From Octopus vulgaris (Eukaryota), in contig OX597829.1 in assembly GCA_951406725.2 (NCBI GenBank), positions 14,260,001 through 14,324,000 on the forward strand: 64,000 nucleotides of DNA, written 5' to 3'. Under the pieces are notes generated by a model. That model saw only the letters and a program-made list of their open reading frames with translations. It made no database searches and was not told where the DNA came from. Below are positions 18,642 to 20,559 of the stretch, piece by piece (within the stretch, counting starts at the first letter, position 1; every line of letters starts with the position of its first letter). The translations under genes and the position numbers were made by a program.

Positions 18642-20559
18642 CAGGCGACTGGCGCAGGCTTGCCGCTACCTCGTGCTAGCCGCAGTTGTCATCTTTCGGG
18701 ATTTCACGGGACGGACCACGTCGCCGTATAAACCGCGTGTATCTCGTGAACGCCTTCCGGCATCGGTCGCGGCTTAGGTTCGTTCTTTCTATTTCGGGCA
18801 CGGTAGCGTGGCGGAGCTGCTGGCGAAGGCAGCCCCTACTTATACTGACCGTAGTTGTCATCTTTCGGGAATTTACGGGACGGACCACGTCGCCGTATCG
18901 AGCGCGTGCATCTCGCGACATCGGTCGCGGCTACGTCCACGCGTACGTGGGCGATACCGCGCGCTTAGGTTCGGTCTTTCGATTTCGGGCACGGTAGCTT
19001 GGCGGAGGAACGGGCAACCGGCGCAGGCCTGCCGCGGGCGGGCCCGCGGCGCGTGGACGAACGGAGAATGAAGGGTGGCGTGAAGGCGGCGGCCACCCGC
19101 CGGGCTGACGGCGTCTTAGGCTGACGTCTCGGGCATCCTGCCGAACGATCCCGGAGACATCCATCTGCCGACTGCAAGCCCTCAATATTGTCTTGACCCC
19201 CTTGGGGTGCGACGGTCACCTAGAGCGTGACTATCCAGCCGGGACCGACCCGTGAGCTTACGGGTCGGATTCTTTCGACTTACGGGTCGGACCACGTCGC
19301 TCTATCTACCCGGTTCGTATCGCCACACACTTCCGGAGACTGACGGCATCAATCGCGCCTACGTCCACGTGTACGTGGGCCATACCGCGAGCTTAGGTTC
19401 GTTCTTTCGATTTCGGGCACGGTAGTGCGGCGGGGCTGCGGGCGAAGGCGGGAGCAGGCCTGGCGTAGGCAGCCCCTGCTTACACTGGCCGCAGTTTGTC
19501 ATCTTTCGGGAATTTACGCCGTATCGAGCGCGTGCATCTCGCGACATCGGTCGCGGCTACGTCCACGCGTACGTGGGCGATGCCGCGCGCTTAGATTCGG
19601 TCTTAGATTAGCGCGGCGGAGCAACGGGCGACCGGCGCAGGCCTGCCTCTACCTCGTGCTAGCCGCAGTTGTCATCTTTCGGGATTTTACGGGACGGACC
19701 ACGTCGCCGTATCGACCGCGTGTATCTCGTGACATCCTTCCGGCATCGGTCGCGGGTACGTCCACGTGTACGTGGGCGATACCGTGAGCTTAGGTGCGTT
19801 CTTTCGATATCGGGCACGTAAAATCGCCGCTTCGTGCCTCGTCGATAACACACGGACACACACACTCGTGGTCTTCGTCGTACTCAGACTTACTGCCCGG
19901 CAATCAACCGGCCGCATAACTTAGCGCACTCGTGCACGATACCGAGAACTCGGCACGTAAAATCGCCGCTTCGTGCCTCGTCGATAACACAGACTTACTC
20001 CCCGTACACTCGGCTTTGCTTTCGCTAGACAGTAGATAGGGACAGTGGGAATCTCCTCGCTTACACTGTGGAATCTTACACAGTGGGAATCTCCTCGCTT
20101 AAGAGAGTCAAAGTTACTCCCGCCGTTTACCCGCACTCTCTTTGGAACTTCTTCACTTTGACATTCGGGGCAGCAGGCAGAAATCGTACTCATGCTCTCG
20201 ACCGAGAACTTCAAGCCCGTGCCCTCGGCTCTGCTTTCGCTAGACAGTAAATAGGGACAGTGGGAATCTCGCCGATACTTTCATGCGGCGCCTCGCCAAT
20301 CAGACGACGATGCCGAGAACTCGCCGCTTCGACAACACACACTCGTGGTGTTCGTCGATAACGTCGCGTACTACTCAGTCTTTCTCCACCGAGCCATGAG
20401 ACCGGGGCTCGCGCTCGATGCTGACAAACGAGAACTCGTCGGCGGTTCAAGAATTTACGTATTGTCCGACTGCCACATAATAACCCAGCCACCCTGTGTA
20501 CGCGCGCAGTAAGCAGGAGGTGCCGTTTCTTCCACTTCTCACTTAAACGAACCTGCAAC
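18642..20559 (-). repeat. GC-rich rDNA intergenic-spacer-like region with subrepeats
   Basis: Four ~160-200 bp units with the motif GTTGTCATCTTTCGGGA...CGCCGTAT (18685, 18854, ~19496, 19668), and a second motif family (CCGAGAACTC, CGTCGATAAC, ACACACTCGTGG) at 19815-20440. Lies 3' of the 28S. Confidence 0.7.
20001..20313 (-). other. Diverged, rearranged copies of the 28S H69-H74 (R1/R2 target) region embedded in the spacer
   Basis: Plus strand reads TTTCGCTAGACAGTAGATAGGGACAGTGGGAATCTC (twice, with variants) and CTTAAGAGAGTCAAAGTTACTCCCGCCGTTTACCCGC, the reverse complement of conserved eukaryotic LSU sequence. Confidence 0.9.

Follow-up and report, generated by a model that had tools for sequence, protein, structure and literature searches.

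A second, 28S-derived R2 target in the rDNA spacer of Octopus vulgaris and its fossil record

Introduction

The retrotransposon R2 serves both as a model for site-specific retrotransposition and as a tool for gene insertion, and each rDNA unit is considered to hold a single target for it. With positions counted from the bottom-strand nick of R2 (TTAAGG|TAGC, +1 being the T), as throughout this article, the canonical 28S target is described as comprising RUM at -34..-22 and RASIN at -6..+1 (PMC10499050). In Bombyx mori, rare R2 insertions outside the 28S gene have been reported at 28S-like sites (PMC10499050; PMC10257491). In a fish R2 lineage, 28S-derived sequence is found in the 3′ UTR (PMC5035012), and R2 5′ junctions can carry duplications of 13-28 nt of 28S (PMC3774820). 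On the host side, rDNA spacers are described as accumulating element-derived sequence, namely Alu, Hideaway, copia and MITEs (PMC10946416).

The spacer site of Octopus vulgaris considered here shares with the canonical target an identical upstream motif, the spacing and TTNANN|T, and the 3′ ends of R2 and SIDE elements join it at the +1 T; unlike the canonical target, it lies outside the rRNA gene, once per unit, with +2..+36 and -89..-42 deleted and the H69 loop changed at -15/-14. As with the stray insertions reported in Bombyx mori, R2 uses a look-alike outside 28S, but where those are single chance look-alikes, the octopus site is a true 28S copy, fixed in every examined unit and hit repeatedly. 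The fish UTR and the 5′ junction duplications likewise indicate that R2 activity can copy the surroundings of its target, yet such copies stay in or beside the element, whereas here a 197-bp copy has become host spacer, no element accompanying it in the array units. The octopus element SIDE1 resembles the R2 SIDE described in Drosophila willistoni (PMC3414825) in being non-coding, in having 5′ and 3′ ends in common with an R2 lineage and in occupying the R2 site, and differs from it in its size (1.64 kb), its mollusc-type genome and its presence in a spacer target as well. While the cases treated in PMC10946416 are element sequences, the octopus spacer piece copies the target at which an element inserts; "decoy" is a word that does not appear in that review. 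In the literature surveyed, mostly non-subscription and supplements aside, no account was found of an R2 target copied into the spacer and fixed there, and none appears in the relevant passages of PMC10946416, PMC10257491, PMC5035012, PMC13580325 and PMC13188248, which deal with spacer elements, stray R2, 28S-derived UTRs and molluscan R2.

Organisation of the orphon locus

The window, i.e., the whole stretch of 64,000 nucleotides that was analysed, corresponds to C16:14260001-14324000, where C1, C2 ... C33 designate contigs of the searched genome (2.8 Gb, 227 contigs). It contains a single 28S gene on the minus strand followed by ~2.4 kb of spacer, in which diverged pieces of the R2 region lie 750-1070 bases beyond the end of the orphon 28S. 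In rRNA sense, their order is D1, a linker of native repeat, U, a 42-base scar and D2, and the features of the locus, established by sequence comparison unless stated otherwise, are the following:

21069..26756, minus strand: orphon 28S rRNA gene (Rfam RF02543)
22405..24043, minus strand: SIDE1, non-coding R2 SIDE at the 28S R2 site, 28S about -13..+187 being lost
20314..21068, minus strand: orphon 3′ external spacer (75% versus the array over the part adjoining D1)
about 20575-20870: 3′ fragment of a LINE, presumably RTE-like, with a short repeat tail, interrupting the orphon external spacer
20212..20313, minus strand: D1, diverged 28S copy covering +10..+108, on the downstream side of the R2 nick (84% versus array 28S over +15..+108)
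20186..20211, minus strand: linker made of native spacer repeat, with the A/G-AGTTCTCGG motif
20098..20185, minus strand: U, copy of 28S -87..-2 ending CTCTTAAG, the spacer R2 target
20117-20132, minus strand: R2 upstream recognition motif inside U (motif positions as given in PMC10499050)
20056..20097, minus strand: repair scar private to the orphon at the R2-equivalent position, made of a deletion with short direct and inverted templated duplications (read directly)
20001..20055, minus strand: D2, second diverged copy of 28S +50..+104 (91% identity)
19813..20000, minus strand: remnant of the first (141-bp) spacer repeat block
18644..19818, minus strand: more intergenic-spacer subrepeats

The position and motifs of the pieces (20001..20313), as reported in a preliminary description of this DNA, proved correct when checked against the sequence. 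They match window 24047-24116, within 28S, at E 1e-14, i.e., above chance; downstream of the site the window's own 28S is not comparable, since about -13..+187 is replaced by the 1.64-kb element. The identity of U to 28S is 78% for -89..-42 and 94% for -41..-7, and CCGAGAACT is present three times in the window (19942, 20202 and 20313). The scar folds no better than shuffled sequence (z -0.89), and its form is absent from the other 27 spacer-type sites of the genome. Rfam matches near the window below the gathering score were dismissed as microsatellite noise. LINE fragments, read by eye on the minus strand, lie at 27290-29890 beside the ITS2 end of the orphon.

Occurrence in the rDNA array

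A tandem rDNA array with a period of ~18 kb is located on C20, where 140 kb were taken, comprising 7 units with 28S genes at 99.4-100% mutual identity; the 28S gene starting at 24050461 exhibits an internal tandem duplication of ~575 bases. D1-U-D2 is present in 7/7 units, about 0.5-0.75 kb beyond the 28S end, and the pieces are thus native to the spacers of the array, as had been surmised. The break announced at the R2 site is present in the window and private to that orphon, the form fixed in the array having +2..+36 deleted yet TTCAGG|T kept. When the 7 array spacers (8.4-9.2 kb) are compared with 18S, ITS/5.8S and 28S, just three R2-region pieces are matched in each at E<1e-3, and no other rRNA region is copied there at that threshold, which disposes of an equal scattering of other 28S regions. 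With looser scoring of one array spacer, the pieces reach 62.5, 51.1 and 38.3 bits, the best of 30 shuffles giving 28-38 bits, so that the third piece alone only equals the best shuffle. A GC-rich match to 18S (41.1 bits) under that looser scoring was judged compositional and is gone with standard scoring.

Counts drawn from the genome search with the 401-base region are lower bounds, 40 of 125 candidates having been scored. Among the Logan contigs of four public runs, the pieces are found in two runs from other studies: in X6, which bears a different organism label, a contig runs through D2-U-D1, differing at 1 of 348 bases, and in X7 a contig covers D1 and external spacer with 4 differences in 241 over D1. 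X5 has no contig of its own over the pieces, the deep contigs seen there being cross-mapped true 28S, while X23 yielded no contigs, which says nothing against the presence of the pieces there. A single metagenome match to the pattern has no rDNA similarity. The window holds an orphon in decay, with insertions and a scar of its own, and the pieces could on that account be ascribed to scrambling within this orphon or to an assembly artefact. Such a reading is refuted, and its probability practically nil, given that the pieces occur in 7/7 array units and in 21 dispersed entries with common derived changes as well as in the contigs of other studies' runs; they are, as such, anything but restricted to this orphon.

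R2 lineages and SIDE1

As judged from sequence comparison, the genome has two R2 lineages, R2a and R2b, as well as a non-coding R2 SIDE. R2a is represented by a full-length 4.75-kb element at the canonical 28S site of one array unit (C20:24070452-24065620, inserted at TTAAGG|TAGC), with an intact ORF of 1276 aa where RVT_1 is detected (E 5e-27) and whose best PDB matches are vertebrate, A-lineage R2 proteins (E 4e-157 to 1e-152). Three zinc-finger motifs, a Myb motif and a PD..D endonuclease motif were recognised in it by eye rather than by profile. R2a thus exhibits the attributes of an R2 retrotransposon, i.e., a single ORF, N-terminal zinc fingers and Myb, a reverse transcriptase (RT) and a restriction-like endonuclease. 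R2b has ~65% DNA identity to R2a in the RT and is frameshifted in 3/3 translated copies. SIDE1 is without ORF, the longest frame wholly inside the element being 137 aa from stop to stop; it is 74% identical to the 5′ region of R2b, and a 3′ motif is common to both. The element is multicopy (10 compared copies, 81-98% alike) and occurs in spacer sites elsewhere; for one copy, at C15:60713565, no rDNA flank was seen. From its sequence, the 1.64-kb insert of the window fits the definition of a SIDE given in PMC3414825.

In both R2 lineages, a putative HDV-like ribozyme was assigned by hand, where P1 pairs 8/9 with 28S -13..-5 and P3 pairs 3/3, with P2 at 7/7 in R2a. This suggests a 5′ HDV-like ribozyme whose first stem would use host bases -13..-5, a position matching one reported for R2 cleavage (PMC3774820). 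Octopus is not mentioned in the passages of PMC5035012 and PMC13188248 on R2; the species tables of both may include octopod R2s. A supposed third R2 lineage turned out to be a 5′-truncated R2b inside segmental duplications on C29, and the boundary at -204 seen there is the edge of a duplication and no evidence of R2 transduction. At C29:25640000-25702000, about eleven tandem segmental copies carry 28S -204..-5 and a 3′-truncated R2b, some being 5′-truncated too.

Insertions, lesions and hybrid junctions at the spacer site

A 20-base pattern retrieved 76 sites in the genome, against 0 for the reversed control; 76/76 were annotated and 28 are of spacer type according to their upstream flank. 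Twelve of these 28 have the current TTCAGG form (7 in the array, 5 in young orphons); none of them is interrupted, and one has T+1>C. The remaining 16 are all disrupted at the R2 position, by about 13 independent events once duplicates on C18, C20 and C3/C29 are merged. About 5 independent loci of element insertion are found among these 16 older-type entries and 0/12 among the current-type ones, namely (i) SIDE1 exactly between TCTTAA and GG|TGAACGG of the spacer site at C14:30215492, (ii) a 13.9-kb stack of four elements, R2b-R2b-SIDE1-SIDE1, in one spacer site at C18:79812602-79798737, (iii) a deleted R2b at C9:113360106, where U is overwritten by 28S-type sequence, (iv) an R2b-derived element at C7:30404512, and (v) 200 bases of antisense R2a at C20:23646173. 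An element junction on the D2 side at C20:11446387 is additional to these loci. Indels affect the spacer site at C1:9438, C3/C29, C5:869, C14:2572, C27, C33 and the window, and a break is seen on C26. Hybrid junctions join 28S upstream sequence to spacer D2, with the 3′ part of 28S deleted (C20:11444675 and C28:10214541), or spacer U to true 28S downstream sequence (C18:79825410 and C7).

Since 16/16 non-TTCAGG spacer sites are disrupted at the R2 position, about 5 of them by elements, the spacer copy constitutes a genuine second target of R2. The earlier proposal to look there for inserted R elements thus has a positive outcome (e.g., SIDE1 on C14 and the stack on C18). Nothing comparable was seen for R1 and I-PpoI: no R1-type element stands at +60..+90 in the annotated D-bearing loci, around the R1 position (near +74), and none of the spacer copies has a complete I-PpoI site, U-bearing spacer sites lacking +2..+9. 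Cleavage and repair scars, proposed to have been fixed by concerted evolution, are real, but most are private to single orphons, and what is fixed is a trimmed site with its nick motif intact. That the current TTCAGG site is resistant to R2 is not claimed, this form being confounded with age; a close relative on C27 has a deletion at the site.

Genuine insertions, the four-element stack included, invite the view that the spacer site is a selected decoy or safe harbour, i.e., a sacrificial R2 site behind each 28S, trimmed to the protein footprint and taking up R2 protein and insertions so that the rRNA gene is spared. This we hold to be rather unlikely. In the C20 array, 28S sites are inserted in 1/7 units and spacer sites in 0/7, the 7 units being a small part of the real array; four young orphons were hit by R2 or SIDE at 28S with their spacer site uninserted (C1:4139, C2:1034, C11:5466 and C5:1009), and three spacer-inserted units are also 28S-inserted (C14:302, C18 and C9), in an orphon sample biased toward damaged units. 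The extra copy is moreover costly, as fusions of the 28S site with D2 delete the 3′ part of 28S. The decoy or sink for rDNA endonucleases put forward earlier is thus partly supported: the R2 target is real, while its selection by the host is no more than possible, with no insertion in the array spacers against one in array 28S and with spacer-inserted units usually 28S-inserted too.

History of the spacer copy

Dispersed rDNA fossils provide a time series for the site. Near-perfect copies on C7, C25 and C26 (D1 96-98%; U -89..-42 98-100%) are joined to native repeats, and the 28S-like copies (94-100%) span -89..+108 around the R2 cut, with breakpoints at -89 (C7 and C26) and +108 (C7 and C25). 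On C7, an element stands directly before D1 at +2, which indicates that D1 was formerly half of a full site. In an old orphon at C2:57262922, whose 28S is 88% identical to the array, the 28S end is followed by external spacer and repeats without 28S pieces; this unit may be older than the capture, or the pieces may have disappeared from it. On C7, at about 30401500-30402250, the old spacer fossil and its elements directly follow what was read by eye as the end of C2H2 zinc-finger coding sequence.

When 13 loci, collected with a spacer-only query, are placed in a tree built on external spacer and D1, they form a ladder leading from 28S to the array, the window being second from the base, which confirms the earlier proposal that the pieces are older than the orphon. 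The tree leaves out 5 near-identical array units, C1:1486 (a near-duplicate), C22 (truncated before U), C9 (U overwritten, D1 lost) and fragments falling short of U. Along the ladder, the identity of D1 drops from 90% to 77%, and that of -89..-42 to about 80% before this part is deleted; the current array form keeps the upstream part -41..+1, the spacing and a TTNANN|T nick motif.

U joins directly after a native repeat motif resembling 28S -29..-11, which may possibly have seeded the capture, the likeness being short and not shown to be above chance. Pol I terminators and fork barriers usually lie in the first spacer repeat block, and the copied 28S block could instead persist through co-option by the host, as a mimic of the native motif of that first repeat block, R2 insertions being incidental. 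Old native repeats indeed have CGGCGGGGAGTAAGT, near 28S -29..-11, with U right behind, and in today's unit U stands where the first repeat would otherwise have that motif. Co-option would nonetheless account for about -29..-18 only, and neither for -38..-30 nor for -13..+1; several intact neighbouring repeats already have the native motif, and a deep relationship between the 141-bp repeat as a whole and 28S was rejected as not above chance, 102/500 shuffles being as good and the R2 region ranking outside the top 15 of 286 windows. We regard it as improbable, the more so than a selected decoy.

Conservation and R2 recognition

Over the 13 loci, U exhibits 1 change in 19 columns at -38..-20, while changes per column amount to 0.48 in D1, 0.45 in D2 and 0.63 in the external spacer. 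In terms of variable columns, -38..-20 differs from D1 (Fisher p 0.004, uncorrected), and 19-column windows as quiet number 0/84 in D1 and 0/201 in the external spacer. A window of D2 near +60..+85 is equally quiet, however, and +60..+90 of D1/D2 changes at about the slow pace of U, so that slowness is not unique to R2-bound bases. Repeated change in U occurs only at -15/-14, bases of the H69 loop, and five fixed substitutions all miss the reported contact positions, with a chance of 0.06-0.33. Taken together, the alignment is no more than suggestive of constraint on R2-bound bases.

The silkmoth R2 protein is reported to need A-31, G-27, C-26 and A-22, the spacing and TTNANN|T (PMC10499050), and these four bases of the upstream motif are invariant in 13/13 tree loci. 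The spacing and T-6 T-5 N A-3 N N | T+1 are found in 7/7 array sites and in 4/5 young orphons, the one on C2 having T+1>C; the scarred window copy departs from this nick-motif rule, which derives from a D-lineage silkmoth protein. R2Tg is reported to contact -25..-20 (PMC12222951), which the array form retains. In A-lineage R2, the N-terminal domains are described as binding upstream only (PMC11204384; PMC12180492), and the retained spacer piece, -41..+1, equals the upstream part that these proteins reportedly bind. The host strand at -13..-5 pairs 8/9 with P1′ in either R2 lineage, and 12/12 current-type sites have it intact; as the spacer keeps this strand of the ribozyme's first stem, read-through could still free R2 RNA from a spacer insertion. 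Two side observations concern similar sequence outside rDNA: a dispersed repeat family with identical flank includes a 20-base copy of the R2 upstream motif (C1:194262547, C3:157497667, C17:21260097 and C24:16431137), and at C23:22071535-22071797 three 120-base tandem repeats each contain 28S +37..+135.

The trimming to the A-lineage footprint, the slow change at -38..-20 with repeated change only at -15/-14, the retained nick motif and spacing and the intact host strand of P1 all speak for a selected decoy; the similar slowness of +60..+90 in D1/D2 and the left end of the deletion at a short shared GAGC motif speak against it. Selection rather than relic would be argued by the quiet -38..-20, by substitutions avoiding contacts and by the resistant deletion variants (C3 and C29) having remained unfixed in spite of the erosion expected, as repair-biased conversion should presumably erode a cuttable site fast.

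Origin, decay and significance

On balance, we lean towards the view that the rDNA spacer has a second R2 target copied from 28S, with R2/SIDE insertions and scars, as a long-lived and at most weakly constrained by-product of R2 activity. The site likely arose by one capture event and spread to all units by concerted evolution. As for the event itself, we infer that a single transfer placed 28S -89..+108 within the first repeat block of the spacer, probably via repair of an R2-made break or copying of 28S flank, and the captured segment would then have been tandemly duplicated and homogenised. The copies would have decayed since, D1 from 98% to 77%, with -89..-42 and +2..+36 being lost, to leave -41..+1, the stretch reportedly bound by A-lineage R2, at the same spacing and with a TT(A/C)AGG|T motif expected to be nickable. 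By this prediction, R2 protein binds and nicks the spacer site, which would then acquire an element or a small indel, or be rearranged with its 28S counterpart 2 kb upstream. On this reading, the spacer copy works as a secondary landing site.

Each examined unit has thus a second R2 target, and the fossil series records its birth, trimming and use. It amounts to a mutational scan, carried out by nature, of the in vivo requirements of an A-lineage R2, where the upstream block is kept and the downstream part dispensable, and the pair of sites 2 kb apart constitutes a new route to rDNA deletions and duplications. Were the decoy reading true, R2 may persist by read-through without killing the rRNA gene. 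More generally, it now becomes testable whether a host or an element can redirect insertions away from an essential gene and into a copy of the target where they do no harm.
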